Of a stretch of 64,000 nt of DNA, positions 6,943 to 54,083 are shown piece after piece (the first letter of the stretch is position 1; each line of letters opens with the position of its first letter). Source of the DNA: Psammoneis japonica (lineage: Eukaryota). The notes under the pieces are model-generated. The model saw only the letters and a list, made by a program, of their open reading frames with translations, was not told where the DNA came from and did no database searches. Location of the stretch: NCBI GenBank assembly GCA_008632985.1, contig QPGO01000064.1, positions 186,001 to 250,000 of the forward strand, read 5' to 3'. The translations under genes and the position numbers were made by a program.

Positions 6943-7119
6943 CTGTCTCCGTCATACCTTTGGCCAAGTTCATTTACCAAACAGACTATAAATGAAACAA
7001 TACGAACTACTCATTATGTAAGTCACTGTATCCGATGATCGTCACTGTCGAATACCAACCAAATATTCAGTCAATCCCAAATCTTCATCACCCCTTCCCC
7101 TCCCCAACATCTGTTGCAA

Positions 7120-28430: not shown

Positions 28431-29281
28431 TCCTGATTTTTCGTTTTCTCCATCGATCTGCACCTTGATGGAGCAAGTACCCAAACAGTGTTCCGTCATT
28501 GTATTCGACACTCTATTGTTTAGCAGTAATCAATGAGATAAGGCAAACGACGACGGCAGGTTTCCCATCGTCGTGTTGTGATGCGTCGTTGGTTGTTGGT
28601 CGTGTGTTTCGCGCTAAATTATTACTGTAGAGTGCGCGAAACGTCAGAATTGCGCGTTGGCGAAAACCACAACTTTTTTTCTCTCCTCCCGCAGCCGCAC
28701 ATCCCGAGTTTTGCAATTGACGACGCTTTTGGCCTCAAACGGCGGCGAACAAGGCATCGGTAGAACCGTAATCATTGTAAGAACATGTGTATTGCTTTGT
28801 TTGTGAAAATCCGTAATGAATTCGTCGAGAAAAGTGAATCTCGTAGTTGTTTTGCGTGCAATTTCGCGTTGGGTGTTCCCGAGAACGCGATCACTTTTTC
28901 GATTTAGCGTTGTCCTTGTACGGAGAAACGCTGAATCGCAGCTTTGTTGTAACATGTATCTTGCCTATATGCTGGATCTTGGGATACATCTGTCTCGGCG
29001 TCACGACAAATCGTTTTATTGCTCATTTTTTGGCCGCTGCTGTGTGTTGTGTTTGCCAGAGCTCATTGTTGTTGCTTCAAAGAGGATCCGCTCCGGGCTG
29101 TCCAAGGCACGGAACGTCTCTTTATTGTGTTTAAAAGAGATTCGTTGCTTTGAATTTTTCAAAACGGGGATCTTGGCGTCGTGAAATCATCGCCAATCTA
29201 ACGGCATGTTTGCCTTTTTCTCGTCACTTGAAGTGCAGGCTTTGTCGAGTGTTGATTGTGGTCACAACCTTTCCACATCTC

Positions 29282-30820
29282 ATGGTGACAGCAGCTGAGT
29301 TGTTTGCTGCGGGGGAGGGTAACAATTTTGGAGAGGCACAAAGATGGGACATGACACATGGGGTTTGGGTTGCTCCCGGAGTTCGGCATTGCACGCACAA
29401 CAGGCCGAGTGCACCTGGACGGTGTGGTGGTGCAGCGCACGACGACAAGAAACTGCAGAAGGAGCATGTTGAGACTGCAATGGAAAAACTGGGGGACAAT
29501 GCGTGGCAGCATGCACAGAAGGATGGTGGGAAAATCCGTCTTCTCAAATCTGTTTGGGAAGAAGTTGATCAGATGTTTGGCCAGAGGATCAAGTGCAAGA
29601 CATTTTGTGACTGGTTTCACCACTGCCTTCAGCATGGTGAGACAAAAGCTGCCACTCACCGTAGAATGAACAGCTGGAAAAGGCGTCGCGGAGTGACAAC
29701 AAGAGCTGCATCATTTTCAGAGGCAGATGATGAAGTGCTGCTTGATGTCGTGAGAGAGAAGCCGCATCTCCATCTCGATGAAATGCAGCTTTCAATGAGA
29801 CGACGCCGGGGCATGACATGGCACCCCTCTGCCATGTGGCGTCAATTGCACCGACTGGGCTGCTCTCTTCAAAAAATGGTTTTTCGTTCAAGACAAAGAT
29901 GCGAGGCCAAGCAGGAGATGCACTTTCGACGGCTAGAGTTGTTCGTAGAAAAACCAGAGATGGCTGTCTTTGTTGATGAGATGGCAAAGAGTGCCAACGC
30001 ATCCAGGCGTTTGCGTGGCTGGGGAAAATTTGGCAAACCACCCGCAGTTGATGCACATTTTGAGGAAGATTTTTGCAAGAGGTGCACTGTGATTGGTGCT
30101 GCAGATGTGAACGATTTTGTGATCGAAGCGTGCATGCTGGCAGAACGTGAACATGGCCCTCATGATGATGACCCGGAACGTGGGGCTGTGGACATGGAAA
30201 GGTTTGAGAGATGCGTTGAGAATGATTTGGTGCCGGTTCCAGGGAGGTGTCATCTTTGCGAGCCGCGGTCTGTGGTGCTGATGGACAACGCATCGACACA
30301 CATCTCCGACTACGTTCGACAACTGATTGAAGATGCTGGAGCCAAGCCAGTTTACACAGCAGCTTGCAGCCCTGATTTGAATCCAATTGAGTGCTGCTTC
30401 TCTGTTTGCAAGTCCGGCCTGAAGCGTTTTTCTTATGAAGAAGGCATGAATTGGTCAATGGCGCACGAGCTGGCATTGGAAGAGATGACGCCACGAAAAG
30501 CTAGGAACCATTTTCGCAAGTGTGGGGCACCAGGGTGCGATGACAATCAGGAAAGGAAGACGGGGGATGCTGAGGAAGAATTCTTCCTCAGCTGTGTTGG
30601 AGGATTCAACACAGCCATTCGAGCAGCTGTGTCACACCAGACTGGACTAAAATGTGCAGTTGTGCTCCGTCTAGCCAATCCATCTAGAACGTGTGCGAGC
30701 AGCCATGACTGTAGTTTTAAAATGCCACCACACGTGGTTCATCTGCTGGCAGAGCACGGAGGCATCGGATGGTCCGTCCAGTCGATGACCAATCCATTTG
30801 CAGTGTGCGAACAGTCATGA
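29282..30820 (+). CDS. IS630/Tc1-family DD34E transposase, hypermutated (true start and stop uncertain)
   Basis: VFVDE ... VVLMDNASTH ... (Y>C)SPDLNPIE with 34 residues between D and E; HTH-like PHLHLDEMQ..WRQLHRLGCS. Confidence 0.9.
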   Translation: MVTAAELFAAGEGNNFGEAQRWDMTHGVWVAPGVRHCTHNRPSAPGRCGGAAHDDKKLQKEHVETAMEKLGDNAWQHAQKDGGKIRLLKSVWEEVDQMFGQRIKCKTFCDWFHHCLQHGETKAATHRRMNSWKRRRGVTTRAASFSEADDEVLLDVVREKPHLHLDEMQLSMRRRRGMTWHPSAMWRQLHRLGCSLQKMVFRSRQRCEAKQEMHFRRLELFVEKPEMAVFVDEMAKSANASRRLRGWGKFGKPPAVDAHFEEDFCKRCTVIGAADVNDFVIEACMLAEREHGPHDDDPERGAVDMERFERCVENDLVPVPGRCHLCEPRSVVLMDNASTHISDYVRQLIEDAGAKPVYTAACSPDLNPIECCFSVCKSGLKRFSYEEGMNWSMAHELALEEMTPRKARNHFRKCGAPGCDDNQERKTGDAEEEFFLSCVGGFNTAIRAAVSHQTGLKCAVVLRLANPSRTCASSHDCSFKMPPHVVHLLAEHGGIGWSVQSMTNPFAVCEQS

Positions 30821-33068
30821 CCAAAGTTTTGAAATGCCCCACCCACGCTTTGTCTGCTGGAGTGCGGAAGTGTCGGACAGTGCGTCTGCATCTTCCACCA
30901 CCAAGTGTAGAATGATTGGTTCTTTTGGTTTGTTGTTTTCATCTTTTGGCGCCGCGCGAAACAACTCCGCAATTGCAAGTGTCTTCAGCTCTTCCACCAA
31001 CCATGAAAGGACGCTTGTGTTGGTCAAAGAGTTCCAAAGGTGAATCTGCACCACCTTTTCTTTGCTGCGAACAGACCTCACAATTTCCTTTGACCAACTG
31101 CGAACATTTGCATCCATCAGTCTCCTGTTGTCGCAGATCTCGGTGCAAACAGTTTTGGTTGCTGAGAATGGAACCGAAATGCCCACGGTGCGTTCTGATT
31201 CCGTGTTGATCACATGGACAAACATTTCATCCGGAGCCAAAAAATGTCCACTTTTTGCTTCAGCCAGGGCCAGGACAGCTGCAGCTGCATCGACTTGGCC
31301 TTCCGCCATCCGTTCCATTGCTTTGTTCCTTCCCGCTTCATTTGCCACGTCCGGATCCTCACGGTGTGATTTGGGCAACCCGTTTCCTTGCACCTCATGC
31401 GCACCTCTTTGGATTGATCCGCCATGCCTGCCATCATCTTCGGTCATAGAAGGATGAACCTCTGGAGCCACGAGATCAATGTTCGGCCATGTGTCTGGCT
31501 TTTCAGGGTCCAGCTCACACGCCTCAAAAATGCACAACTGCCGTTCGCCGTCGATGGACATCCTGTTGCTCCAACACCGTCTGCATGCTTTCCAGTGTTC
31601 CAATGTGAGAGCATGACAAAAAGGGTTGCAATCAATGTCGGTGCCAACCAACTTTTTCATGAATTTGACAACTTCTCCAGGAGCCTCCGCGTCGAATTCT
31701 CACGTTTCTCTTGCAGTGCGGGGTTTCACTGCTTTCTCGGGAGAGAGCAGTGCTGCAACTCTGTCATCCTGGGAGCTGGGAATGGATGGTTCCTCATCAT
31801 CATCCCACGGCTCATCGGTTTTCTTCTTCTTTCCAACAGACAGACGAAGGAAGGCGCATTTTGGATCCCGTGCCTCAGGCGGTTTGCTTTTTGCCTTGAC
31901 ACGCCTGTGAGCTTCCAAAAACAAATGCTCAGCAGAGTTGAGAAGCTTCACTTGAGCTTTTGAAAAATCCTCCATGAGCAACAATGACGACTTCTTTCCC
32001 ACGCACGAGTTCCCATCTTTGTCCTTGTGCCGTTGATCCTCGACAGCCGCGCGCAACACAGTGCTGCACACGAGACTCCATTGAACCCTGCCACCATCAG
32101 CCGATGGTTCTAGAGTGGCAACATGCTGCGCGTCTTTCTTGTCTGCAACAACATGCGTTCCATCCTTGTTCGTTGCAGGAGGCAAAAGGCACAAGGCCAA
32201 TGACAGCTCTTCGTCTTGTGTTCCTCTTTTCCTGGACACTTGCCCCGTGCTTGTTCCGTCTTGAATGTTCCCAACAACACAGATCAGGTCTAGAACAACA
32301 CCAGAAGGGTCAGACTGACTCCCATCATCAGCCATGTCTCCTTCGTCGTCACAGTTCTTGTACGACACATGAGTCAGAGCATGCATCCAATGCGCCTCTG
32401 CAACCATGGGCGTTGCACGGCTTGAACCGCACTTGCCTGGAGGATCCGCCATCTGGGGGTCAGCTCTGCAGTGTGGCTTTGAGTTTGAAGTCTTGTGCGG
32501 CATCAGTTTCTTTCCTTCGGCAGAAAGGAGTGCGTCCAATTCTGACTCGACTTCTTCCATGGTGGAGCCAGTGCCGAGTGATGCAATCGACACCAAATCC
32601 TGCCCTCTGTTGGGTCCATCGTGAAAGTCAAACGGGGTGGTGAACTTGGGACTGCTTGTTTTTCGTTCATCGTGCAAGCACAACCCAACTGTGACATGTG
32701 AAGCATCCAGATCACAGATGGTGCACTCTCTCTTCCAAATCAATGGATGCATTGCCGGAATCTGAACGCGACCCGGGTGTCTTCTTGGATGACGATGATG
32801 ACTTTGAGCTTCTCGACCTGGAAGAGGAGGATTTCTTTCCCGATTTTTGTCTGTTGGCATTAGAGAAAATGCTTGGTGTTTTCAACAATGCGCCCGCATC
32901 GTCACTGTCTGGTGACAACGGGAGATCCAACCGGTGCTTTCTTCCACGGCTGTCACCGCGTTTCTTGCGGGCTCTGGCTTGGTCCTTTCTGTTCTCTTCA
33001 CCCAACCTAGCTTCCACTGTTGGTTGCCTCTTCCTAGATGAAGTTCGTTGAGAGATGGATTTCTTCAT
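30815..33068 (-). pseudogene. Second, convergent gene of unknown function inside the transposon (broken into three ORFs)
   Basis: Contiguous coding-like ORFs 32712-33182, 31700-32860 and 30815-31660 on the minus strand, with a basic N-terminus (MKKSISQRTSSRKRQ). Confidence 0.6.
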
Positions 33069-33885
33069 GGTGCCACGTGATGCAAAACCCACACTCAAGG
33101 AACGAGAAAAGGTAAACATGCCGTTAGAGCCATGACAGACAGATGCTGCGGCAACAACACCGACGATACACAACGATTTCACGACGCCGAGATCCCCGTT
33201 TTGAAAAATTCAAAGCAACGAATCTCTTTTAAACACAACAAAGAGACGTTCCGTGCCTTGGATGGCCCGGAGCGGATCCTCTTTGAAGCAACAACAATGA
33301 GCTCTGGCAAACACAACACACAGCAGCGACCAAAAAATGAGCAATAAAACGATTTGTCGTGACGCCGAGACAGACGTATCCCAAGATCCAGCATATAGGC
33401 AAGATATATATTACAATAAAGCTGCGATTCAGCGTTTCTCCGTACAAGGACAACGCTAAATCGAAAAAGCAATCGCGTTCTCGGGAACACCCAACGCGAA
33501 ATTGCACGCAAAACGACTACGAGATTCACTTTTCTCGACGAATTCATTACGGATTTTCACAAACAAAGCAATACACATGTTCTTACAATGATTACGGTTC
33601 TACCGATGCCTTGTTCGCCGCCGTTTGAGGCCAAAAGCGTCGTCAATTGCAAAACTCGGGATGTGCGGCTGCGGGAGGAGAGAAAAAAAGTTGTGGTTTT
33701 CGCCAACGCGCAATTCTGACGTTTCGCGCACTCTACAGTACACGCTAGGGGCCCTAGAACAGTGAGCAGGGTGAGCGCAGAGCTCTGCTCATTTTTTTTT
33801 CATTTATTTATTGGCGATCGATCCGGACACATTGTTTGTTTTCCCTTTTGAGTTTTGCTCGGCATTGTACTGTGTTGTATAATGA

Positions 33886-35295
33886 ATGATGATCCGCCCA
33901 GCACAGCTACTACAACACAAAAACGAACTCCATCATGACCCAAACTGGTTTCCCGGCACGATGAGGATTCGAAAATTGGTGCTCTTCATGTTGTGCATCT
34001 TCATCTTGTGCCGAGTACTGCTTTCAGTCTATGGCCCTCCTCTGATAGCCACAAGCGGAGAAGCCATATTATCTAACGATCCTACCCCTGAGTTACTGCT
34101 AAGTGTCCCTTTCTACGTCTACGAGGAGCTGGCGTGGGTCAACGCAACTTACGGAACGTGGCCAGTCAGCAAACATGCGTTACACTCCCGACATGAGCAG
34201 TACGACACTCGCTTCAACCACGGGGACGATTACTTTTTCATGAACGCGAGCTTGAACCACCCCATGCGGACTCGAAACGTTGACGAGGCAAAGTTATTCT
34301 TTGTCCCCTGGTTATATAATTATTTTGTAATGACTATCGCGTGGGGTCGTCAAAAAACAAACCATCTCTGTTGGAATGGTAGATGTGATAATGAACTGCT
34401 GAACTATTCCCAGAAAATTCTACGAGATTCTGAGGCCTTTCAGAAGTACCCAGAGCGTCACGTCATGGTACGGTCCCATTTTGCCTCGGCCGGGTTTTGG
34501 TCAACTGATTTTCACAACTTCACAGAAACACATATTCCAGGTTTGAACGAGCTTGTCGAGAAGACATCAGCAGTCATTTTTGAAGACGCGGAGCCAGAAC
34601 GGAAATCAGAAAATCAACAGTTTCTGCCTTCATACTATGTGGGATCGAATTGTGGTGACAATTCGTCCAAAGAAGAAAAGCGATATGATGTCGCCATGAT
34701 TGGCAGCATGAGAACCCCCGACCAACCACAGTTTGATGATCGACGAAATATATGCAAGTGGTTGGGCAACTCTTCCACTATCAAGACGTCGGTGTGTGGA
34801 GAGGGGTCCCGCTGTCCGGCTCTGTGCCAGTCCAAATTTGGATTCCATATCCGCGGTGATTCTTGGGGGAGCCAACGAGCAATGGATACGATCTTGAGTG
34901 GATCGGTACCAATATTTACTAATTCGCAGCAGTATCGAATTCTTGGCGACTGGATTGACTGGAACCAGCTCACTTACTTTTTTCCTATTCACGATGAGTC
35001 ATCTTATGGAGCCAAGTACAACGTGACTGGAGAAACTTTCTTGGAGAGGTTGCAAGACATAATCGATGACAAAGAGGGCTATGAACGCAAACACAAGGCG
35101 GTTTTGGAGAATGCTCCGCTGTTTGATTATACCACCGTATATCCATTTGATACTTATATGTATTTATTCCAAGCAAGGTTGTTTCCAGAAACCCGTCAAG
35201 CGAAGAGCAGGTGGAGTGCATTGAAGTTGCCACCTCTCGTACAAGGAGAAAATGGCAAGCCAGTCAACCAAAGGCTTCGAAATAACAATTCATAA
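33886..35295 (+). CDS. Exostosin-family (GT47) glycosyltransferase
   Basis: Type II TM anchor, PFYVY, HPMRT..EAKLFFVP, SKFGFHIRGDSWGSQRAMDTILSGSVPIF. Confidence 0.85.
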   Translation: MMIRPAQLLQHKNELHHDPNWFPGTMRIRKLVLFMLCIFILCRVLLSVYGPPLIATSGEAILSNDPTPELLLSVPFYVYEELAWVNATYGTWPVSKHALHSRHEQYDTRFNHGDDYFFMNASLNHPMRTRNVDEAKLFFVPWLYNYFVMTIAWGRQKTNHLCWNGRCDNELLNYSQKILRDSEAFQKYPERHVMVRSHFASAGFWSTDFHNFTETHIPGLNELVEKTSAVIFEDAEPERKSENQQFLPSYYVGSNCGDNSSKEEKRYDVAMIGSMRTPDQPQFDDRRNICKWLGNSSTIKTSVCGEGSRCPALCQSKFGFHIRGDSWGSQRAMDTILSGSVPIFTNSQQYRILGDWIDWNQLTYFFPIHDESSYGAKYNVTGETFLERLQDIIDDKEGYERKHKAVLENAPLFDYTTVYPFDTYMYLFQARLFPETRQAKSRWSALKLPPLVQGENGKPVNQRLRNNNS

Positions 35296-35599
35296 AATAA
35301 TGCCTGGCACGTCAATTGCGAGTAGAAACCTTTAAAAACAACTAGCAATGACTGGAAATGCTATTTTTACGTTGCCACGTACTTGGGCGAACCAGTTGTG
35401 TCTGCGTTGTTGCCACATCGTTGTCGATTCCAGATGTCTCTCCTGTGCTCTGGGTGGTGCTGCACAGGGCCACCAGCAAAGCTTCCCGTCATGCCATCGT
35501 ACCACGGTGATGCAGTGTAACAATGCCACCTGTTGAACAGACCACGATGTGTGCTCTGGGCCCGGCTGACTCCCCGCCGCTCCCCATCACTGGGCAACT

Positions 35600-37500
35600 G
35601 CCCACAAACTGCAGAGCACACTGGCCACATGCCATGACCAGGAGACATCAGCATGGCACCATTTGAGGGAGTTGCACCCTGTGATCCACTGCCTGAACAT
35701 GTGGTGAAAAGTCCAATCCCATGCCATCAGCCAAACTCACCATCCACACATTCATGCAGCACTGCTCCCATGTTGTTGGTGGTGCTGTGAACTGCAGCAC
35801 CTGAATCTGCCACACACTCTCTCTCATCTTCCAACAGCTTCAATGAGGCAGGGGGGACTTGGTCCCTTCATTTCTGTGTGAAAGTGTCTCAACATTGGCC
35901 CCACCACCAGTGCTGGCTGCCCCCATCTTCTTGCATGACTGTGGTTTCTTTTTGCACCACTCCGCCACACCTTGCTGACATCATTGGGGTCAGCCCAGTT
36001 GTCAACCCCCCCAGCACAGTCAGTTGAGATGCCAGACTCAGTGAAGCCTTTGTGTTGCAAGGACGGCCATCAACCAAAATGGGGCTCTCTTTGTTGTCGT
36101 TGTTGTCACACATGGTGGCTTGGTCATTGATGTTGTCATTGGCATCATGATTGCCTGCTTCATTGTCAGCATCATCTCCACACAACTCATCTTCTGCACT
36201 GTCATCATCGTTGGATGCAGTGACAGTGAGATCATTTCTCACCTTGGACAGTGGCTGATTGCCATCTTCTGGAAGACATCCCTTGCAATGCTGCAGGTGC
36301 TTGGATTGGATGGAGTGATGCAATGATGTGAAGAACAGGGAGACTCTCACCTTTCACACAAGTGTTTGCACGGCTGCAATCAGGGCTGAGTGCACTGCAC
36401 CTGAGACTGAGACAGTGCCTCATTGACAAGGTGGCACACCGCGCAGTGGAGAACACCAGATTCTGTCTTGTCAGAGAGCTGCTGTGCTTCTGGCGCCAAA
36501 CTTTCCACCCTTGGAAGCCTCTCCTTGTTCTCTTGCCACCCCTGCACTGCTCTTTTGGATGCAGCTGAAATGCTTTGTGACCCTTCCTGTGGCAGCACAG
36601 CACTGTGCATCATCAGCTCCAGCCAAACTGACTTCATTGACTTCATTTTCTGGTTCTGAGACAGCACCACACATGGTCCTCCACAACTGCACCACACACG
36701 CTCTTGCATGCATTGCTCCTTGACTTCAACACATTTCCTTTGAGTCTTTGCTCAGTGAGCTGTGAGCACCAAATCACACTCTTTTGGCACTTTCTCAAAT
36801 GCAGCTGCAGTCAGCTCATCCTGGCAAATCTCAAAACTCATGGAGTTGTGCTTGTCCTCAACTCCACTCAACTGCTCAAACAACTTGCTTGGCATGTCTG
36901 TCTTCCCCATGATGGAGATTTTTCCCAGAGCTCTGTGCTTCACTCAACTGTTGAAATCAGGTCCTTTGGCATGTGCATCTCATGCATGGCCAATGCAATC
37001 TTGCAGGCCAGTCCTCTGGGCCAATCAGTGCTTTGGGACTTGCTTACCAATCCTGCCAATCCTTCAGTGGTGGGTGTTTGTGGTGGCCACAGCAATCCTT
37101 TTCTTGACTGCTTTTGCAGACTTTTCTCCATCATCAGTCATCTCATCCAAGGCTGCACTCTCAGAACTTGGCACATTGTCTGCCTCAACAGATGTGCACA
37201 AAGCTGAAGCAAATCCAAGCACATTTGCACAAGCACAACAAACAGAAGTGCACCCACCACAGCTGAAGAAACTTGCTGTGCCCCCTCTGAGCCTGTCAAA
37301 GGCAGCCCCTGTGTCAACAGGGCTCAGCACCTTTCAACGCAACTTTCTTCTGAAAAGTCACGCAGCGCAAGGCTCTCTTCCAACTTCTGTGTCCCAGCAG
37401 ACTTCCCCCCCCAGACTTCTCCTCATTGGGACCAAGCTGCAGTGCAGGATTTGCTCTCTGTGGGACTCACCATGTCATGGGGTTCACAACCAAAACTTCT
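35600..37500 (-). mobile_element. Older degenerate Ty1/copia gag-protease remnant
   Basis: WPRGLACKI..PKDLISTVE..PSKLFEQLS (gag), C..C.RKGHKA knuckle, VWVADSGAAVH protease motif near 35800. Possible PBS GGTT(A>G)TGAACCCC at ~37479-37491. Confidence 0.65.
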
Positions 37501-38573
37501 CTCCAACGTGGGTGGGTGAGCTCATTGCTGCTGGTGCCCTGCTTCGTTGCTGTTGACGATGATCCTGTGTCATTGCTGCTGTTGACGATGATGATCCTTT
37601 TGCTGAGGAGGAAGTTGCTCTGGTTGGCACAAGTGTTGAAGCAAGTGAGAAGCCAAACAATGGCTTGAACAGCCCACCAGATGTGGGAGCGCCAGTGGAT
37701 GATCCAGAAAATTGCATGGATGATGTGCTGCTGCAATGAGCAGAGGATGTCGGGATGATGTTGTTTTGTTTTGTTGTTCAACAGAGAGAAGGAGAGGGTG
37801 GAGGAGAGAAACCCTTGGCGCTGATTCTGCTTTTGCTGTTGATGACAATTCTGTTGCCAAGGAGGAATTCATTCTGGCAGCAGACAAGGAGCTTGGCCAT
37901 GCCTTGAATGACACGTGGCAGATGCGGGAGAGCCGGCGGACACAGCTTCTTTTGGAAGGAACCTGTCATGGTGGGCAATGATGGTCATTGCAACATGACA
38001 GCATTCTAGGAGAATGCAGAGTTTTGCCAGATGACAACGTTGATCCAGTGGATGTTGTCTTTGTTGTTGCAAAGAACGAGGAGAAAGCAGCCTGTTCTGT
38101 GCTGTCTCTTTGAGACCTGGGCCCGGAGCAACGCGCTGCGTCTTTTGTTTGTCTGCGAGTAAATCCAGCTGCCGAACAGGCTCAGCCACTCACAGTCTTA
38201 GTGCGACAGCGTGAACACAACCAACAAGATGCTTCTGGGCCTGTTGCAACTACAACAGATGCAACAAGTGAGACCGATTGGTGGTCATGGTCACTTTCCC
38301 ACCGATGCCACGTCACAGTCCCGCCACTTCAACTCACAGAGCGCACTGGACAGTCTCTGATGCATTGGATTTCACTTGGTCCCCTCGAAATGTGCCTGAC
38401 TCGTAAGGCACAATTCGATCCAATGCTGTGTTGGCAGTCCAACTCAAACAATCTTGACTTGTCAATCGACATAAAAACCCTTGCCAGGGAAAAGTCGCCA
38501 ATCCTCTGTGCATGGTGCAAACCCTCACTGGGGAAGAAACTCACCACCACTCCACGCATCCGTCTCAATGCGT

Positions 38574-41500
38574 GAACTTGTCCAACAGAAAATTCCGTCT
38601 GACAGACGACATGACCTTTGTGAACAGATCGCCAAGGTTTGTCTCTGTTCCCTCCTTTGCAATCCAACAGTCCCCGCAGCAACAGCTTCGCGGTTACGGT
38701 GACACGCAATGGAGTGATGCTTCTTCTTGAGTGTAGACTCAGGAACAGAGCAATTCTTGCAGACGGCCTCATTGTCACAGAAGACATTTGTTGGCCCTTC
38801 GATCGGTGCCCCAAACATTCAAAGCTTACATCGTAGACCCTCTGTGAGCTCGATGGCATTCTTGAGTGCAACGATCTCAGCCCCAAATGTGCTGGCCTCC
38901 ACGGCATTCTGACGCTTCGAGTGCCACACGATGGGTGCCCGATTGACAAACATCAAGACACCTGCATGGCTGCGACGATCGGCAACATTTCCGGCATGGT
39001 TGGCATCCACAAAACAATGTGTCGACACCACATTGCCTCGGGCTGGTGGTGCATTTGTCGGGATGGCTTCTCTTGCATCTCGGTGGAAGTCGCGCCAGTC
39101 GCACTTCACGAATCGCGATTCATCGATCTTGGGATGAGCCGGATCAAATGCTGCTTGGCGCTTTGGAACCTGTTTGAGGTGTGCAAAGACATGCAGCACC
39201 TGTTCCAGATGACCAATGCGAGGAAGAGCGAGGTGAGCAGACATTGACGAAACCTCCAAATGGATGTCCACTCCACCGAGTTCCACAGCCCAAACCAGTG
39301 CACCAATCAGCTCTTGACAGCAGTGAAGTCCTTCAGCGTCCAGTTTGCCAGCAGTGTCTAGCTCGGGTTTGCATCCACTGCTCAATGGGGTTGTCACCTT
39401 GCCAGGCAGATGTTTCCCCTCCTTGCCAAGCCTGTCCTCTACATTTTGGACAGCGGACTTGCAGCACTTCTCTGCAGACATTGCCCAACAGGTGGTCCCA
39501 TCGGCCAAAGTCATCCTGGAGAGTGCAGCACCGAGGTGAGAATCCGGTTCGGCCACCTTGTCACCCTTGAGCTTGAACTTGGACCTGATGCCGTCCATCG
39601 TCTTCATGGGTTCGTGACTGATCGACAGCACGTCGCCCACATAAACTAGAACGCATTCGCAGTGCTCGAATCCGTCGGGTTTCACCGCAGGTCGCATCCA
39701 TGCATCTGGATCAGCCTTGCTCAGTTTGTGCCCTGGGATCACAAAGCGTCTCCGCCAGGAATGCCCTGAACGCTGCTCTGGAGCTCTTCAATCCATGTAG
39801 AGCCCTGACCACAATCATGATGCAACCTTCATCCTCGCCAAACTCGGAACCTGCCCTGGTCCAAATCTTCTCCCTGCAAGGGGCAGCAAGGTGGGCGTTC
39901 TGGATGTCACGTGCAAAGACTTGTGAGTCATTGAGTTGCAGCAAGTGTCAGTGCAATCCTCACCGAATCCCGAGAGATGACAGAGGAGCAAGTGATGTGT
40001 GCGGGGGTTTCAGCAGTGTGGCCTCCAGCCACCATACGAGCTTTATGGTGGAAGTTTTCTCCCAATTTGACATCAAAAATCACATGGCACTTCACTTCCT
40101 GGAAACCAGGCGCCATGTCCTTAAGCTCCCCTTCATGCTTGTCAAAAGCAACCTGCACATTCTTCATCTCCATGCAAATGGCGTCCCACCACAGGGTGTT
40201 GCCATTTGCGCGATCGATCTGGATCGCCTCCTCGACACTCTTTGGGATCCGCATGCCAAACTTGTGTGTTCGTAGCCAATGCTTCGACTTGACCTTCGCA
40301 GTGGAACGCTTGCGGGTTTTCATGACATGAGGAACCCACCAAGCAAACGCTGCTTCATTCGAGATCTTGTGCTGAATGGCAAACTCGGCAACTTGGACTG
40401 GGAAGCTCTCCTTCGCAATCTTCAAGTCGATCCAAGTCGCACTTCCGTCCTTCCATTGGAGTGGGAGTTCCCATCCTTTGGCAGTCTTGCGCCTCTTCTG
40501 AACGCCTCGCTCGGTCTCAAAGAACTCGGATTCAGGAACGTCCCCGTTGGTGCGGCAATCAACGATCTCGTCAAATGAGACATGCCGGTTTCCGTCCTCA
40601 TCGATCTGAGCAAACATTCATGGCGATGGAGTTAGCAGAGAGCACAGCATGGTGCCCATCAGGGTGCTCCACCTCATGCATCCTTGTGTCAAGGATGGGA
40701 TTGTCATTGGCTGTTCCTGTCGGAATGCCATTGGCGTCTCTCAACCTCTTCATGACACGAGCAAACTCAGGACCGTCATCATCTCTTGGAAGCGCAACTT
40801 CCATGTTAAGGTGTCCCCAGTCCGCCACCTCCGGTGAGGCTTCCTCGTCTTTCTTGTCGTCATCGTCATTTGTTGCCTCCTCTGAGGACATGACACGATC
40901 ACACTCATCGAGGAATTCATCGTCGTATCCAAGGCGGTCTTTCCAGTCTTCGGGACTGATCTTGCGATCCTCGTCGTCGGGAAAGTCTTGCTCCTTCAAC
41001 CGGCGCTTGATCTCCTCGTCAAAACTGTCAAACTTTGCCTTTTTCTCTTGAGCAGCGGCTTCTAAATTGGTGACTCGTTGAACAGAAGTTCTCGAAATGA
41101 CACTGCCTGTCTGTGTCAAAACGTGGTGCGACATGAGACTCCCTGTTCTGTGAGATGCACCAAGCCACCTGCCAAGCTTCTCGTCCCCCAGACCGGCATT
41201 CTCCCTGTGCCAGACCCAATCATAAAATCCAAAGTCAAGGCACTCCGAGATGTCCACGGTCTCTCCGAGAATGTTCTCCAGTGGCACTCCAGCATCCAAA
41301 TGATGGGCTCTAAGGAATGTGCGAGACATGGTCTCACATGTCCACACAAATCCACAGTCCCACAGTCGCCGCGGCACTTGCTTCTTGACCATGATGCGGA
41401 ACCACTTGCGTCTGACCTCGCGCACAACCCCTTCTGCAGGATTCTGGTTGTGTCGATTGGGTTCGACGACATGACAATCTGTGCCCTCCTTGCGCACAGT

Positions 41501-42798
41501 CTTCATGAACTCCGTGCCAGGTTTCGTTTGCTCCTTAGATCCATCCATCAGGAGTTTCTCTGGCACGCCAAATTCCTGGCAAAACGTCTTGAGAGCCTCG
41601 CCAGCCTTGCTCTTCTTGTCCATGGGATAAATCGAAGTGAAGTGTTGCTTGTTTGTAAAGATCTGGGCATGTCGATTGCCCTCCAACGAAACCACCTTGC
41701 CATCAACCGTGTCGGTTGCCCATTCACCCCGTAACCCAGGCTTCATGAACATCCGATCGGCCCGGGCAGCGTCAACCCATTGGCATCAATGCTGACCTGA
41801 TGAGCTTTTGCGCAGTCTTCTTGAGCGTGTTTGCTGCTTGCTTGAGTCCCACGCACCATCGTTCACTCAAGTCAGCAGCCGATGCATCACTGTGTCTCTC
41901 CTTTGAACATGAATGTCTTCGGGAGTGCTGAGTCTTCAGGTCCTTCGCCGATTGTTTCCGTGGCAGAGATCTGGGCTGTTGACTCCGATTCCACATTAAC
42001 GGCATCTGTGAGCCTCAATTGGACTTGATCGACTCCATGAATGAATCGCTCATCGCAACAGTCCCCGGATTGAGGGTTGCTGTGGGCAGGATCGGCTTTG
42101 AACTCGTGTGTCAGATTGGTGTGGATCGTCGCAATTGACCGAACTAGCTCCATTTCCTCCTCCGCAGATTGTCGAGTTCCAACAGATTTGAACCCAACGG
42201 TCTGTGGATCCCAAGGTTGTTGGGAGGTCATCTGGATCTTGGGGCATTCGTGCAACTCCTGTTCTGCAGGAGTGCGAGTCGCCGCAACGATGTTGGCCCC
42301 CACAGCTTCAAGCGGCATCATGAATGATCCATCCTCTGTGAGGACACACAGTGGTGAATCGGAGCAGGGGTTGTCCTGAACCTCAACACCAAAGTGCCGC
42401 AGCTGGTTTGGGTTGACCAGCGAGTGCTCCATGGACTCCGGCATCCACAAGCCCTCGTGGAAGACCAGAATAAAAGTTGCTCCCGATGTCGGTGACGTCC
42501 ACGCCGTGGCTGCCGAGACAATTGGGACACTCTTGATGGAATCGCATCCCTTGTTAAAAGGCGATGCGTCACATTCTCGTCCAGAATGACCTGAGAGAGT
42601 AAAGTTTTGACCCAAAACAGTGGTGTCAGCATGCGAATCCATTTCAAGGTGTCCATGTTGTGCCTTTCTCATGTCACGGATGTGAGTGATTCGTGTGGTG
42701 TCAGACCGCGTTGCCGAGACACGCCGTGTCGACCTCACAGACGCGTTCATTGCAGCGACATGGACACTGCTCCTTTGATCGATGTGGCTGTCCCCCAC
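38574..42798 (-). pseudogene. Copia Pol (protease, integrase, RT, RNase H), frameshifted
   Basis: EMDSHADT (PR); TDT..DGSKEQ..QNPAEG (INT); KARMVAGGH, DIQNAHL, ALHGLKSS, LVYVGD (RT); FVDANHAG, STFGAE, CDNEAV, KKHHSIACH (RNase H). Confidence 0.92.
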
Positions 42799-42859
42799 CC
42801 CAATGCAGCAACCACAACAAGAAGTTTATGATGCAACAAAGCAGGGTCCAGCTTGGCAG

Positions 42860-44287
42860 TCATTTGTTCTTTCCTCTGCGCTTTTCGCTGCGACCACCGA
42901 ATGCGTCTCCGGCATTGTCTCCGTCTTTGCCGCCAGCCCTTGATTCATCATCACCAGAATCGGCGCTGGCATTGGTGTTCAGGGCGGAGATTTTGCGGTT
43001 CGCTTCTTTAAGCTGCAATGACAGCTTCCGATTCTTCTTCTTGAGCGACTTTACGGATGCAGCACGGCGTTTGGTTGGTTCAGGTTGTTTGGCAACACCC
43101 AGACGCACGCACTCGTCGACAACCTTCTGTTTGTCCTCCTTGCTCAACTGGTGCCAATTTTTGTGGCATCCAGTGTCAATGGATCCATCCTCATCATGGA
43201 TGGTGCCACCCTCTTTTCCTCCTCCAGAGGCGACTGCGGCAATCGCACGACGATGCGCAATCGTCTCTGGAAGGGTGGCGACTTTGGCAGCAAGATGATT
43301 GGCCGCCGTGGTGAACGTGATGCCTCCTCCAAACTCATTCTGTGCCTTCAAGGTCTCAACTGCTGCTTGCAGTGATTGGTGCTGCGTCTTCTCAAAAAGG
43401 ATCCACAATTTCTGGGCCTCCGTTTTCGGTTCGTCGTTCTCCTCAAAAATGTCAAACATTTCTTGGAGCTTGTTGACAAATGATTCAAATGGCACAGCAC
43501 GCTCACTCTTGCAATGGAGGGTGTTCTCCATGCGCTCGGCTTCAGAGACACGGCGGGAGGCATTTCCTTCTCCCTGGTGATGGTCACACAACGCCCTAAA
43601 GTCAACTCGTCCGTTCTGCTCATTCTTGTGGTCTTTCAACCATTGCTCACTGGGTGTGCCCGTGGCAAGGGACTCGATGAGCAAATGAACCATGCGAGTG
43701 TCAGCCTTGAAAGCTGGGCCTTGGAGGGGTGCACATGCAATGCACTTCTGGACAAAAGTGTTGTGGCCTTGGGGTTCAGGTGCATCGTTTTGACGCATGC
43801 AATGCACTGACGGCACGCCAGAGACTCCCAGCATGACACCAAGCACATTCGTCAAGCCGGTGCTCCACTTGGCCCAATCCTTTTCGCTCTCTAACATCCC
43901 GGGTGACGCCTCTTTACTGAGAGAGTCAGCAGTGGTCTTGGTCTGGGAATGGATCTCGGCACGACTGAGTGCCGTCTGGAGAGCAGCACGGAAAGTTGCC
44001 TGGTCAAGCCCATCCAGAGCAGGGTTCTCGCTCACACGACCAAAGTCCTGCACCCAATGGATGAGAGCTTTGAGTCGATGACCATGGGCCAAACCAAAAT
44101 GAATGCGCCCTTCAGCAACCGTCCTCCTAGCGTGTGATGATGCGAGAGAATCGATGTCCTCTTCCTCGAGGTCTTCCAAATCATCAAAAGACGCAAAGTC
44201 CGCCATGAGCGAGACTCGTTGAGCTGGATCAACAAATCCGATCCATCTGAGAGCTGTCTTGATGGGATCCGGAGGAGCTGCCGCCAT
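42860..44287 (-). CDS. Copia Gag
   Basis: 475-aa ORF downstream of the 5' LTR; RLKALIHWV, GVP...R, D.R.VH.LI, LH(Y>C)K.ERA, AGDAFGG. Confidence 0.85.
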   Translation of the reverse strand: MAAAPPDPIKTALRWIGFVDPAQRVSLMADFASFDDLEDLEEEDIDSLASSHARRTVAEGRIHFGLAHGHRLKALIHWVQDFGRVSENPALDGLDQATFRAALQTALSRAEIHSQTKTTADSLSKEASPGMLESEKDWAKWSTGLTNVLGVMLGVSGVPSVHCMRQNDAPEPQGHNTFVQKCIACAPLQGPAFKADTRMVHLLIESLATGTPSEQWLKDHKNEQNGRVDFRALCDHHQGEGNASRRVSEAERMENTLHCKSERAVPFESFVNKLQEMFDIFEENDEPKTEAQKLWILFEKTQHQSLQAAVETLKAQNEFGGGITFTTAANHLAAKVATLPETIAHRRAIAAVASGGGKEGGTIHDEDGSIDTGCHKNWHQLSKEDKQKVVDECVRLGVAKQPEPTKRRAASVKSLKKKNRKLSLQLKEANRKISALNTNASADSGDDESRAGGKDGDNAGDAFGGRSEKRRGKNK

Positions 44288-45608
44288 GGTGGCACCTACA
44301 CCAGCAGGAAAACAGAGTCATGTGAGAAATCATAAATCAAAAGGATGTCTCGGTCTGTGTTGACGACAACACACAGCCATTGGAAGCATGGAGACTGGCC
44401 ATGTCTCCTCACTGCTTGTGCATTCACTGATGCCAGGCAACGATAATCATCATACACCCTTCGATCGACCGGCGTTCGTTGTCACAACCCTGCCACATTG
44501 GTGCGATCGTCTCTTCACAGTTGTTCAATGCTTTTCGTCAAACCAAACCTGAGTTGACGACTTGGCTCTGACAAAGCGAGTAAATCTAGCTGCCGAGTGG
44601 GCTCAGCCACTCACAGTCTTAGTACGATAGCGCGAATACAACCAATAAGATGCTTCTAGGCCTGTTACAACTACAACAGATGCAACAAGTGAGACCGATC
44701 GGTGGTCATGGTCACTTTCCCACCGATGCCACGTCACAGTCCCGCCACTTCAACTTATAGAGCGCACTAGACAGTCTCTGATACATCGGATTTCACTCGT
44801 CTGAAACTGGGCGTGTCGTGCGCACACCGCAAGGATTCATCAGCATCGATCACGCCATTTCTTGTTGATGCGTTCGAGTTGAACAAACGAAAACGCCAAC
44901 CATGACGAATGAAATTACCCACCGGATTTGTGGTTCGCTGAGGTCTCTCATCCCGAACGTAACTTCCATTGGTTGACCGCGGTGAAAAAAAAAAAACGAG
45001 TGCTCAGCGTCAAAATTTGCCTTGTGACAGATGAAGACATGACTGGTGAAATGTGTGTGACGGTGGTGTGCATGCAGCATGCATGCATGCAAGCAGTCTA
45101 CAATGCATCTATCCTCTGTCAATTTATTTGCCTGGGCCTGGGTTGTGCTTGTCTGACTCACCTGGTAACGGTTGCGAACGAAAAGAGTTCACGAGACGTT
45201 TTTTTTTGGAATTCCGATCAATGAGATCATATTACACCACAAAGCACAAAGCACGTTTCGACTGTCTGTCGAGGGCGGTTAAGCCAAAGCACGATTCGGC
45301 AGTCAAGGCTCACTGCTCGAATCAGAACTTTGAACCAAGCATGTCGAATGTAGAAGTGGCAGTACAAGCCCCAATCCTACGGCAGTCGAGTGACGCATTC
45401 AACATTCAAATAACAAGCACGATTCGCAACCATCCGCCGGTATAGTACCACCTGCCAGAACTTCACACAATTCCTGCTGAACACTGAACACCAAACTATT
45501 CGTAAGTACTTTCAAGGCAGATATCCAAACATGGCCGTATAGCTACACTCTTACATGACTAGTTTTCTGATATCTCCTTCGTCTGCAAGCACAGATTTTT
45601 GAACAAGA

Positions 45609-48792: not shown

Positions 48793-49989
48793 GTTGAAAC
48801 GCGATAGTAATAGGGAGGTGCGGGTCGGAATCGATATCGAAAGGCAGTAAGGATCGGATTTGATTTGCAGCCGATGGAGCCGATGGCAGAGCGGGTTCTT
48901 ATGCCGCCATGTGGACTATGATGGCCATGGCCGATGCATGCGGTCATGGCACATGGCACGCGTGATAGCACGTGCGGGCGTGCGCGCAGCAGCAGGGCTG
49001 CCGCGGCATGTCTCAAGATCGCAATGCGGGCGTCACGTCATGTCATTGACCTTGACTTTGCTTGAACCTTGAATGTGCAGTGCCGGCAGATGCCAGGATC
49101 ATTGTGTGTGTGTGTGTGTGTGTGTGCTGACTGACAGTCACACCGGATTTTTCCAACCACAGCAGTCTATTTGTGCAAGTCACAACACCCCCACCTGATC
49201 ACCTGTGCCCTCTCACACACCACAACCTTGGCAGAGGTGCTGTTTCCTGCTGTTGTTGGGACTCAGCATCAAGAAATGTTGCCACCTTCAAAAGTGTGTC
49301 TCTGTTTCATGTCACACCCACCCAGCAGACGTGTTGATTGCCAGCTTCTTTGCTGCAAGCCTGCCAAAGGTCAAGTTGCACCTCACATCCTGTGCACCAA
49401 GCTCAGCACCTTGAGATTTCGGGCTGATGAGAGAACAAAAATGATGCCATTGAAGAGCTGCCTGTGCTCAGCTTTCACGTGTGTTGTGTTGTTTCTCTCT
49501 TTGTTCAGCTCAAATGCAGTTGGCTTGTGGAGCAACTTTGGCAACTTTCAAGTGGTGGAGAGGTTTGAACCTTCTCTTCTGGGGCCTGCTGTTTTGACCC
49601 CCTGCTCTAGAAATCATTTGGCACGCAGGGCGAGATGGCGCCATTCAATCATCTGCAGCACCCCAATTGATGATCTGCGCAGTTTTGTTTTTGTGCCATG
49701 GAGATCTGTTTTGGGAACCTGGGGAGGCATCTTTGGACCGAAGTGAGATCATCGAAGAGGCAGTCCAATTGCCAGTGCATTTGGGGGGTGTCCCAGCACA
49801 ATTTGTGCACACAAGAAAACACAGGATCTGTCCAGCTTTCCCAAATGCCCAATTGCACTGGATTGACAAACTCTTTAGTGTGCAAATTCCACGCAACTTT
49901 CTTTGACACTCTCACTTCCAAAGATGTCTCCCAGACCTTGGTGCGTGGCTTTCTCTGACATGTGGAGAGATCCAAAAACATCTTGGAGT

Positions 49990-51385
49990 GCAACAGGCAG
50001 GTCCAAATTCCAGAGTCAGCCCCATGAAACACACCAACTGGCCTGATGGATGCAAGCTGAGGGCACTGGCAGTGTCTGGCATGTTCCAGGTGGTGTGACT
50101 TCAAGAACTGTGGTGCGGCATTGCAAGGTTCTTGATCTTGTGGTGTTGTGGCCCCATGTCACCTCATTGTCCCCAACAGGAGGAGCAGACTTGAACAACC
50201 TTCAAACTTCAGAGTGCAACAACCCCATGATGGGCACCAACTGGCCTGATGACTGTTGGCAAAGGGCATTGGTGGTCTTGGTGGGCCCCAGGTGAGACTT
50301 TGAGAACTGTGGCTGCACATTGCAAGGTTGATCTTGAAGTGCTGTGGTGGCCCCATGTCATGTTGTGCCCAACAGTGACAGACTTGAACACCCCCAATTC
50401 CAGAGTCCAAGGATCCCATGATGGTTCCAACCAACCCAACAACTGCCAGCAGAGGGTGTTGATGGTCTTTGGTGGGCCCATTGTTGTGCATCTTCAAGAG
50501 CTGTGGCTGGGCATTGCAAGGCTCATCTTGTGGTCTTGTGATGGCCCCATGTCACCTCATCCCCAACAGCAGCAGACTTGCCTTTCTGGCAAACGCTGGA
50601 GTGCAGGGATCCCAAGAACCAACCTGAACAACTGCCAGCAAAGGACCCTGGTGGTCTCTGGCAGGCAGGCACCAGGCAACACTCTTCAGAAATGTGGCCA
50701 GGCATTGCAAGGTTGATTTTGTGGTGTTGTGCCCCCCCCCATGTCACACCTTGTCCCCAACAGGAGCCCACTTGAGTTTCCAAGCTCCAGAGCCCAAGGG
50801 CTCAATGACAGTGCCAATCAACCTGACAAAAGCAAGCTGAGGGCATTGGCAGTCTCAAGTGGGCCCCAGGCAACACTTTGAGAGTTGCAGCTGGACATGG
50901 CAAAGTTGATGTTGTGGTGTTGTTGCCCCACATTTTGTGTTGTGCACAACAGCAAAAGACTTGAGTTTCCAAACTCCAGAGTTTGAGGACCCAATGACAG
51001 TGCAAACCAACTGGTGGGCAACTGCCAGCAAAGGGCATTGTTGGTGGTCTTGGCAGACACCAGGTGAGACTTTGAGAGCTGTGGCTGGGCATTGCGCAAG
51101 GTTGATCTTGAAGTTTTGCAGCCCCATGTCATGTTGTGCCCAACAGCAGCAGACTTGAGCTTCCAAACTCCAGAGTCCAAGAGCCCCAAGACAGGGCGGC
51201 CAACCTGACAACAGCAAGCTGAGAACCCTGGTGGTGTTGTCCAGTGGACACCAGGTGACACTTTGAGAGCTGTGGCTCTGAGCATTGCAAGGTTGATGCT
51301 GCGTGTTGTGGCCCCATGTCAGGTTGTTGTCCCTGCCTCCCAACTGCAGTGCAAACTTGATTTCCCAACTCCAGAGTTGCTCATT
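49990..51385. repeat. About 7 diverged tandem units of ~190-200 bp; ~2 inverted copies at ~53085-53430
   Basis: Recurring CCAGAG...GGCATTGCAAGGTTGATCTTG...GGCCCCATGTCA...CAGACTTGAGTTTCCAAACT at ~50011, 50210, 50400, 50597, 50787, 50977, 51170, 51371. Confidence 0.8.
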
Positions 51386-51942
51386 CTGGGGGTTGATTGC
51401 TGAGTGGCAGCAGGTGAGCTGAACTTCAAAAAGCAACATGCTGGGAGAGTGCCAGGTGTGTGGAGTTGTTTTGCAGTGGCAAAACAGCTTGAGGAGGAGA
51501 GTGTGGAAATTGTTCTTTGCAACAGCATTTTTGAAAAAAAAAAAGAACTGTGGTCATGCATGGAGTTGGGTGTGCAGAGAATGCCCACCCTTCTCTCTGA
51601 CAAGAAGCAAATTGCCACTGGCACTCAGACCAGCATGGCATCCAAACAACCCTCTGCAATCTTCTGCAAAAGAAAAACTGGTGCACTCACAGTGCAACAA
51701 GGAAGAGCTGCACAGACAGCGGGCATGATTCAGCACCCACTGGCAGAAATCCACTGCTGCAGCCAAACAGAATGTAGTGTGCGCGAGCACAGACCAAAAC
51801 AAAAACACAAAATCACGTGTCACAATGACGTTGTTGGCCCAGATGACTTGACACCCCCAAATGGGTTTGCAGCGCATTTTTGCTGTCAATCAACAGCCTC
51901 AAAGTGGCGCTGAATGAAGCACACATTGACCCATGCTGCGAT

Positions 51943-52724
51943 CTGGGTTGATGTTGGAATTGGTCAAATTGTGGTGTGATGATGAGACTGGTTAGTTGAC
52001 TGGCATGTTTGGCAATGGGAAGCATGAAAAATGACATGGATTGAATTGTTGCAACACAACAATTCTGGGGCTGTTTGACATTGTGAGCTGGGCTCCAGAG
52101 TGCAAATCAATGCTGCTGGACACAGAAAAGGAAAGGACTCAAGTGTTTGTGGCTGCATTGTGTGTCACAAAAGGATTGGCTCAATGAGAAGATCATTTTG
52201 AAAGGAGAGTCTCTTTGCATTGTTGTCAGTCATGCAACAAGGACACAGTAGATTGTGGCAGGGGCGTGCTGTTGTCATGCAAACAGCTGGTTGGCACAGC
52301 TGAGCTGTGTGGTGCCTGATGCAACAAAGCTGCTGGGTTGATGTTGGAATTGGTCAAATTGTGGTGTGATGATGAGACTGGGTTAGTTGACCGGCATGTT
52401 TGGCAATGGGAAGCATGAAAAATGACATGGATTGAATTGTTGCAACACAACAATTCTGGGGCTGTTTGACATTGTGAGCTGGGCTCCAGAGTGCAAATCA
52501 ATGCTGCTGGACATAGAAAAGGAAAGGACTCAAGTGTTTGTGGCTGCATTGTGTGTCACAAAAGGATTGGCTCAATGAGAAGATCATTTTGAAAGGAGAG
52601 TCTCTTTGCATTGTTGTCAGTCATGCAACAAGGACACAGTGGATTGTGGCAGGGGCGTGCTGTTGTCATGCAAACAGCTGGTTGGCACAGCTGAGCTGTG
52701 TGGTGCCTGATGCAACAAAGCTGC
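51943..52724. repeat. Near-perfect ~390-bp tandem duplication
   Basis: CTGGGTTGATGTTGG starts at 51943 and 52333; the copies differ by 3 substitutions and 1 indel. Confidence 0.92.
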
Positions 52725-53689
52725 GAACATGCAGCAAAAGTGCAAAAAATGCCAAGGACAGAGTTGAGCTGATGCTCTTCCAAACAAACAAACAAACCAG
52801 CTCTGAACAAGATGCTGGGCCACAAAACAAAACATGGCAGATGCATTGCCGCTGGAAAAATTGTTGTCAACCTGCCAAATGGCAACCTTGGCAATGCCAG
52901 TTTTGTGGCTGAAAATGAGCCAGCATCAGAACATCACTCAGAACCACAACTGCAGTGCCCAACTTGTGCAGATTTTTAAAAATCATGACACCTGTGGAGG
53001 GTTGAATCACAAGTGCAACAGCTTTGATTCTTGTCAACTGATCTTCTTGTCAAGGGCAAGAACATGAGATGTTGTGAGGACATCCTGCTGGGGACAAGAA
53101 GGTGCTGACATGGGGCCACAATGTCACAAGATCAGCACCGCAATGCCCAGCCACAGCTCTTCTTGAAGTCTCACCCTCCTGGGTTTGCCAGACACTGCCA
53201 GCATCCTTTGATGACAGTTGCTGGGTTGGCTGGCAATTTTGTGGGATCTTTTCAATCCCTCGAGTCTGCTCCTCCTGTTGGGAACAAGGTGACATGGGGC
53301 CACAATGCCACAAGATTGACCTTGCAATGCCCAGCCACAGCAGCTCTCAAAGTGTCACCTGGGGTTCACCAGAGATCACCAGTGCCCTCAGCTTGCTGTT
53401 TTTGGGTCAGTTGGCACTGTCATGGGGCCCTTCGGGGAATTTTTTTTGGGCCTGTGGACTCATGTGGTGAGTGGGGAGTGCATTGCAACACACCATCTGT
53501 CTGACTTTCACAAGAGTTTGTGTGGCAACCTTTGTGCATGTGTGCATGTGTGTGCGTGCATGTGTGCGAGCATGCATGTGAAGCTGGTCAATCCGTTGGC
53601 TCATCATGGTGAGTGATTTTTCCTGCCCCTTTGCAAGTGAAAAACATGGTTTGATGTCATGCTCGCGATGCAATGTTTGCATCACAACA

Positions 53690-54083
<394 letters not shown>

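Follow-up and report, generated by a model that had tools for sequence, protein, structure and literature searches.

The 64,000-nucleotide window analysed here (positions 186,001 to 250,000 of contig QPGO01000064.1) carries a Ty1/copia long terminal repeat (LTR) retrotransposon at 38156-44798, which lies among blocks of DNA from which the dinucleotide TpA has almost disappeared. We propose that the window very probably records, in a diatom-like genome, the long-term footprint of a TpA-specific A:T to G:C hypermutation of the type described for integrated viral DNA in the alga Bigelowiella natans (Mettrop et al., bioRxiv 10.64898/2026.01.13.699255). The changes are transitions that turn TpA into CpA or TpG, they were made after the retrotransposon had inserted, and they are restricted to discrete domains.

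Sister LTRs and the direction of change

The first-pass annotation of this DNA had described two direct repeats of 222 nucleotides, at 38155-38376 and 44576-44797, as sister LTRs that differ by transitions only. A repeat search recovers the pair, which is 92% identical and the sole such pair in the window, and a base-by-base comparison returns 17 differences, 17 of 17 being transitions. At eleven sites the right copy reads TA where the left copy reads CA (six sites) or TG (five), at three the right copy reads CG and the left TG, and the last three differences form one run, ACA in the left LTR (38176-38178) against GTG in the right (44597-44599); this agrees in every class with the earlier tally. 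The repeat pair itself stands, and its limits move by one base, as the pentamer GTCTG is found immediately outside both LTRs, at 38151-38155 and 44799-44803, forming a 5-bp target-site duplication by which the LTRs become 38156-38377 and 44577-44798. The presence of GTCTG on both sides means that the two LTRs come from one insertion. With the new limits an eighteenth difference is gained, a T (in TG) on the left against a C (in CG) on the right, bringing the CG/TG class to four of 18 and the transitions to 18 of 18.

These differences are concentrated at TpA. Eleven of the 18 coincide with one of the 28 positions, out of 222, that make up the TpAs of the right LTR (binomial P = 1.7e-6), and the TA state is in the right LTR at 11 of 11 sites (sign test P = 0.001). 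The left LTR has 3 TpA and 9 CpG, the right LTR 14 and 12, which upholds the earlier claim that TpA is struck harder than CpG, as do the observed/expected (O/E) values of the depleted blocks given below, and the near-equal split between CA and TG (six against five) confirms that both strands are hit. Measured against base composition, the left LTR holds 3 TpA where 12 are expected (O/E 0.24), with CpG at 0.61 and CA+TG at 1.67, and the right LTR holds 14 where 14 are expected (O/E 1.00), with CpG at 0.90. Because the Copia element is on the minus strand, this almost unmutated copy at 44577-44798 is the 5' LTR and the hypermutated copy at 38156-38377 the 3' LTR. The ACA/GTG triple implies one ancestral dinucleotide that was hit in both LTRs with unlike outcomes, plus one transition outside TpA, and therefore the ‘spared’ right LTR is not wholly untouched. 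After such hypermutation the divergence of the LTRs (8%) is no longer usable for dating the insertion.

The long open frames between the LTRs run along the minus strand as six pieces, which switch back and forth between two frames. A Pfam scan of 20 open frames of the element, from both strands, gave no matches, and the identity of the element was established by phmmer-type protein searches, Pfam being blank on the mutated frames. The integrase frame (40598-41785, 395 amino acids) matches 371 proteins at E <= 1e-3, the best of which are polyproteins of about 1400 amino acids that carry PF07727 (RVT_2) and are 53-62% identical to it. The reverse transcriptase/RNase H region (38819-40617, Pfam blank at E <= 0.01) is divided between two frames, 39928-40617 and 38819-39787, the second of which matches 7908 proteins at E <= 1e-3 and 277 at E <= 1e-30. 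On the other side of the integrase are a protease-region frame of 312 amino acids (41887-42825), which aligns with the matching part of 40 homologous polyproteins, and a gag-like frame of 485 amino acids (42860-44317), assigned from its place upstream of the protease piece and from its translation; Pfam is blank for both. Given the direct LTRs, the 5-bp duplication and an integrase piece upstream of the reverse transcriptase pieces on the minus strand, which is the copia order, the element at 38156-44798 is a Ty1/copia LTR retrotransposon. It is not an intact copy, being in six frame pieces and having lost the conserved tyrosine in 40 of the 43 columns discussed below, and it is dead from frameshifts. 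On the two strands of 38819-44317 we also count 43 stop-to-stop frames of at least 80 amino acids overlapping 37500-45500. A primer-binding site read as a mutated initiator tRNA-Met site was considered, fitted poorly and was dropped.

The interior of the element (38378-44576) has 41 TpA against 343 expected (O/E 0.12), with CpG at 0.74 and CA+TG at 1.45, and its proteins indicate which way the changes ran. Tyrosine makes up 0.23% of the Copia pieces as against 3.59% of 88 homologues, and histidine and cysteine are 1.75-fold and 1.42-fold higher. The pieces were aligned with 40 full-length homologous polyproteins, among which 1019 columns reach a conservation of at least 70%. Of 43 conserved tyrosine columns, the Copia copy has kept tyrosine in three and now has histidine (CAY, Y being a pyrimidine) in 17, cysteine (TGY) in ten, phenylalanine in six and other residues in seven, whereas non-tyrosine columns are retained in 662 of 976 cases (Fisher P = 4e-16) and tryptophan in 26 of 27. 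Replacements explicable by a single base change comprise 27 TA to CA, 22 TA to TG, 20 CG to CA and four CG to TG, together with one change of the kind made in fungi by repeat-induced point mutation (RIP), 31 other transitions and 87 transversions. The near equality of TA to CA (27) and TA to TG (22) repeats the strand symmetry of the LTRs, and eight of nine threonine to alanine changes are preceded by T, so that the TpA spans the codon boundary. Outgroup polarisation thus sustains the direction proposed in the first-pass annotation, 27 of 43 tyrosine (TAY) codons now being CAY or TGY against one RIP-type change, and supports TA as the ancestral state, and CA or TG as the derived one, in the Copia interior.

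Depletion of this kind does not appear to characterise the family as a whole, as family-wide TpA loss was not seen among 11 related metagenome Copia loci, whose TpA O/E is 0.36-0.78 with none below 0.3; in four of these loci CpG O/E is 0.18-0.38 with TpA at 0.36-0.58. Among the 150 cluster representatives listed for the reverse transcriptase piece, six relatives have no more than 1% tyrosine. These public Copia reverse transcriptase fragments, which represent clusters at 50% identity, are P0251, P0158, P0201, P0230, P0248 and P0167, and they carry histidine or cysteine at 6 of 7, 12 of 15, 7 of 8, 7 of 7, 8 of 14 and 8 of 10 conserved tyrosine columns, respectively; two normal control fragments retain tyrosine at 13 of 17 and 12 of 15. 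The footprint may exist in other Copia families or in other genomes, and the source of the six fragments may also be this same genome.

TpA-depleted domains in the window

The same direction is found in a second element. At 28623-33740 there is a transposon with terminal inverted repeats of 566 bp (28623-29188, and 33175-33740 on the minus strand) that are 98% complementary, and a match to PF13358 (DDE_3; E = 1.8e-16) on 29135-30817. Its interior (29189-33174, plus strand) has 25 TpA against 238 expected (O/E 0.10), with CpG at 0.70 and CA+TG at 1.50, and both inverted repeats are spared, with 18 and 20 TpA and 44 and 47 CpG. Only two homologues of the transposase were found; at the 12 columns where both have tyrosine, the window has tyrosine once, histidine three times and cysteine eight times, so 11 of the 12 have become histidine or cysteine, and tryptophan is kept in six of six. 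The two arms differ at 12 positions, all transitions and 11 of them at pyrimidine-purine (YR) dinucleotides, including two doubles of CA against TG. A rough hand estimate puts the expectation for such doubles at about 0.1 if hits were independent, which hints at hot sites or exchange among copies.

Across the window, four blocks have a TpA O/E of 0.02-0.12 as against 0.51-0.61 in six background stretches. Taken as 40 windows of 1 kb, the background ranges from 0.38 to 0.96, and in the six stretches CpG O/E is 0.95-1.11 and CA+TG O/E 1.15-1.24. CpG is depleted in the same blocks as TpA (O/E 0.16-0.74). The stop codons TAA and TAG fall from 14-18 per kb in the background to 0.8-5.9 per kb in the blocks, a 3- to 20-fold drop, with TGA unchanged, and the loss gives rise to many long false open frames on both strands. 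The edges of the blocks are about 100-200 bp wide. The claim in the first-pass annotation that the process is targeted to repeat and mobile DNA in discrete domains is well matched by these four sharply bounded TpA-free blocks.

In addition to the DDE_3 interior, the depleted DNA comprises a block of diverged repeats of about 180 bp (families D6, D9 and D10) at 20251-24500, with 21 TpA against 276 expected (O/E 0.08), CpG at 0.38 and CA+TG at 1.77; a CpG-poor block at 35501-38150, adjoining the 3' LTR, with 3 TpA against 157 expected (O/E 0.02), CpG at 0.20 and CA+TG at 1.84; the Copia element; and a CpG-free satellite block at 49001-54500, with 9 TpA against 339 expected (O/E 0.03), CpG at 0.16 and CA+TG at 2.03. 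The block at 35501-38150 and the Copia element make up one depleted domain, 35501-44576, which contains the left LTR and excludes the right. The break is abrupt: the final 123 bp of the interior (44454-44576) are devoid of TpA and the adjoining 222 bp of the right LTR have 14, which places the limit of the domain within about 10 bp of where the 5' LTR meets the interior. The two DDE_3 inverted repeats are spared as well. Candidate explanations of the spared terminal repeats are an effect of the edge beside unique DNA and some tie to the transcribed unit, and both fit. We did not adopt a specific transcription-unit model for the 5' LTR, as it needs a start no more than about 11 bp from the end of the LTR and the TATAA-like word lies far upstream.

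The satellite block contains repeats of about 194 bp, a 391-bp duplication and a (TG)196 run with one N. The diverged copies of the 194-bp repeat, with an inverted partner array, are at 50082-51250 and 53100-53435; in pairs they are 71% identical, or 88% when reduced to a purine/pyrimidine alphabet, and in six copies CA is mixed with TG at 9 of 17 all-YR columns. Tandem Repeats Finder reported the 391-bp duplication and (TG)196 only. The tandem duplication (51943-52724) is 98-99% identical inside TpA-free sequence, and either it is younger than the hypermutation or it had run out of target TpA at which to diverge. The (TG)196 run (53692-54083) carries the single N of the window, and its repeat unit, CA/TG, is the end product of the hypermutation.

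A proposed mechanism, its precedents and its rivals

We suggest the following course of events. The Copia element inserted with a 5-bp duplication, its LTRs then being identical. A process acting on DNA afterwards turned TpA, on either strand, into CpA or TpG across 35501-44576, taking in the interior and the 3' LTR and stopping where the 5' LTR begins on its inner side. It also stripped TpA from the DDE_3 interior and from the two satellite-like blocks. The depletion is close to saturation, about 90% of TpA being lost, and a slower decay of CpG to TpG or CpA goes on in the same domains. As to chemistry, we infer enzymatic deamination of adenine in 5'-TA-3' DNA by an ADAT2/TadA-like or ADAR-like enzyme, which may be recruited to repeats by silencing marks or RNA and may serve in genome defence.

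Several points weigh against this account. The 18 LTR differences rest on the assembly alone, and among the 40 of 1135 read-contig differences and the 16 of about 2545 contig pieces that were listed, none is inside either LTR. No third copy polarises the 11 LTR sites, whose direction is taken from the interior and from composition and is to that extent presumptive. The outgroups used for polarisation are only 53-62% identical, 162 of the 354 changed columns need two or three base changes, and the codon classifier preferentially labels ambiguous changes as TA or CG. The two LTRs are equally repetitive and one only was hit, which targeting by sequence homology pure and simple fails to explain. 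The block at 35501-38150 has no recognisable mobile content, its open frames being without a Pfam match and a purine/pyrimidine k-mer search for homology masked by transitions having returned only the known repeats and nothing for this block, and a restriction to ‘repeats only’ is accordingly unproven. Finally, TA is its own complement, and for this reason attack on adenine and attack on thymine are inseparable by sequence.

The first-pass annotation had stated that no described system was like this one, which no longer holds. The B. natans preprint reports the same spectrum, in giant-virus and virophage DNA that is integrated in the genome and hypermutated at TpA, and likewise proposes an adenine deaminase (bioRxiv 10.64898/2026.01.13.699255). 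In its mutation-accumulation lines 231 of 302 nuclear mutations were in giant-virus and virophage regions, and 230 of those 231 were A to G or T to C, all on TpA according to the authors, at a rate of about 6e-7 per site per generation, some 1000-fold over background and in some lines only. The authors also report 324 TpA-poor coding sequences, among which DDE-endonuclease and reverse-transcriptase domains are over-represented, and windows poor in TpA and rich in CpA+TpG that group into 124 clusters, and they propose an ADAT2-like adenine deaminase, citing the 5'-U preference of ADAR (bioRxiv 10.64898/2026.01.13.699255). By the cluster cut-offs of the preprint (a Rho of at most 0.43 for TpA and of no less than 1.52 for CpA+TpG, in at least three consecutive 1-kb windows) our window holds three clusters, at 20001-24000, 35001-40000 and 49001-55000.

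The two cases are alike, as far as the preprint describes its own, in the conversion of TpA to TpG or CpA, in its being about equal on both strands, in the discrete foreign or mobile regions affected, in the TpA-poor, CpA+TpG-rich clusters and in the DDE and reverse-transcriptase content. They differ in that the host here is diatom-like, not a chlorarachniophyte, and what we see is a fossil footprint, whereas new mutations were measured in B. natans; in the near-saturation of our blocks (O/E 0.02-0.12) against a Rho of 0.45 in the giant-virus region of B. natans; and in the targets, since our window shows the depletion in an LTR retrotransposon, in a DNA transposon and in satellites. Moreover, CpG is co-depleted here, of which the main text of the preprint makes no mention (bioRxiv 10.64898/2026.01.13.699255), and terminal repeats beside unique DNA are spared. 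Within the literature covered, a search for a TpA-loss signature in diatoms found none, and a search on TpA hypermutation generally found no description beyond this preprint.

The alternative that survives best keeps the same in-situ conversion of TpA to CpA or TpG and changes the base attacked. Oxidised thymine mispairs with G, and if thymine were oxidised or otherwise modified in silenced chromatin (to 5-hydroxymethyluracil or 5-formyluracil, by a TET/JBP-type dioxygenase), T to C changes would follow. This would accommodate the depletion of TpA and CpG in the same domains, with both ending as CA/TG, and the same class of enzyme acting on 5-methylcytosine could tie in the loss of CpG; the similar numbers of TA to CA and TA to TG changes (27 against 22, and six against five) leave the struck base indistinguishable. 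Deamination of 5-methylcytosine may have its own share in the window, as CG to TG or CA is the change at four of the 18 sites where the LTRs differ and in 24 of the polarised codons, and the larger class, TA to CA or TG, is beyond its reach. Against thymine as the target, the sequence data give no sign of base modification, the young elements have CpG at 0.70-0.74 and TpA at 0.10-0.12, so that the two losses may be independent, and the B. natans preprint favours adenine deamination, with its ADAT2-like candidate and the 5'-U preference of ADAR (bioRxiv 10.64898/2026.01.13.699255). On balance we regard a thymine route as unlikely.

Three further readings are far less probable. RIP in ascomycete fungi is triggered by sequence duplication before meiosis and needs a RID-type methyltransferase; it changes CpA to TpA (C to T), creating TpA and stop codons, and it resembles the present case as a transition-only, dinucleotide-specific ruin of repeated or mobile DNA in place, with flanking genes untouched. 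Were a RIP-like C to T change at CpA and TpG to have made the TpAs of the right LTR, CA and TG would be ancestral; from two copies alone the 11 differences are readable either way, and the TpA O/E of the right LTR (1.00) does exceed the background median of 0.53. However, tyrosine is now histidine or cysteine in 27 of 43 columns, one RIP-type change stands against 49 in the opposite direction, tryptophan (TGG, a target of RIP) is kept in 26 of 27 columns, and TAA and TAG are nearly absent from the blocks, not enriched, TpA being destroyed here and not created. The CpG losses are, in addition, in the same left copy as the CA and TG states, so that hits on a single copy account for 15 of the 18 differences. 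We consider the reverse polarity very improbable. Plain homology sensing would also not predict that the sister LTRs, identical to begin with, fared differently.

The second is an artefact, in which a modified base at the TpA of repeats is misread in sequencing or polishing and the true DNA is still TA; the one N of the window, inside a (TG)n run, would be in keeping with trouble of this sort. Read support was drawn from k-mer contigs of one sample (runs X1-X3), of which X3 had nothing placed and X2 covered little of the element. X1 contigs match 35205-35804 with one differing letter in 600 and 36864-37337 with one in 474, at a depth of about 58-60, and the sequence of the TpA-free blocks is supported by these contigs; X1 may, on the other hand, be the assembly's own source data and hence not independent, which counts among the points against our account. 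Placed over the Copia element at a likeness of 85% or more, 2427 contigs show transitions at 884 places and transversions at 188, X1 contigs include indel variants near the frame breaks, and linked CA/TG swaps occur in the same contigs at several of the 40 of 1135 differences listed. Word depth summed across the element comes to 1368-2970, as against 55-61 in unique bins; it is no copy number and shows only that there are many related contigs. A misreading of TA is further at odds with LTRs that were identical at birth and differ within one assembly, with edges that match the limits of the element, and with the six public reverse transcriptase fragments that have the same tyrosine to histidine or cysteine pattern. 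We give it very little credence.

APOBEC3 and ADAR edits made before integration are on one strand and common to both LTRs. They share with the present case the context-specific hypermutation of mobile elements, which in theirs is driven by a deaminase, and part from it in that the changes here are post-integration, are on both strands and affect a DNA transposon and satellites too. Editing before integration, by ADAR-type A to I change of the retrotransposon RNA or by editing of the cDNA, fixed at reverse transcription, is scarcely credible, for while the 5'-U/T preference of ADAR suits TpA (bioRxiv 10.64898/2026.01.13.699255), it predicts the same changes in both LTRs and on one strand, whereas the LTRs differ, both strands are hit, and the DNA transposon interior and satellite blocks are likewise depleted.

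The host and the wider meaning

The host genes of the window are compact and apparently intron-poor over 1-20000, where we find a D-Tyr-tRNA deacylase (1174-2142), a tRNA-Ser(CGA) (3812-3896), Kae1/TsaD (10200-11360), a leucine-rich-repeat protein (14082-14930), an SRAP peptidase (15398-16423) and a B-lectin-like protein (17162-17959). The Kae1 and SRAP domains are each within a single open frame, and among the best 120 matches to Kae1 all eight rows that name an organism are diatoms, at 68-76% identity. The background GC content is 47.5%. In B. natans the GC content is 45%, a gene has 7.8 introns and exons average 159 bp (PMC12730881, Table 1). The window is diatom-like, and its host is other than B. 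natans.

An A:T to G:C mutator directed at mobile DNA and specific for one dinucleotide mirrors RIP, and nothing of the kind was known before 2026, when one preprint described it in a rhizarian alga. A diatom-like footprint means that the process is confined neither to one lineage nor to integrated viruses. A practical corollary concerns annotation, as gene callers would over-predict in TpA-free DNA and Pfam misses the real mutated proteins. The signature itself offers a cheap screen, in TpA O/E combined with tyrosine to histidine or cysteine changes in transposon proteins, which has already picked out the six public reverse transcriptase fragments, and a comparative route to the enzyme, through genes that genomes with the signature share and genomes without it lack.

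More tentatively, as a possibility to which we assign somewhat less than even weight, TpA-directed DNA editing could be a dedicated defence, shared by or recurrent in distant lineages of the stramenopile-alveolate-rhizarian (SAR) assemblage, namely diatoms and chlorarachniophytes, which is recruited by silent chromatin or RNA, acts on all silenced classes of repeat, satellites among them, and travels with cytosine methylation. If this were true, recruitment would not be by ‘viral’ sequence as such, and the limits of the edited domains would be sharp to about 10-200 bp, leaving terminal repeats beside active DNA untouched.

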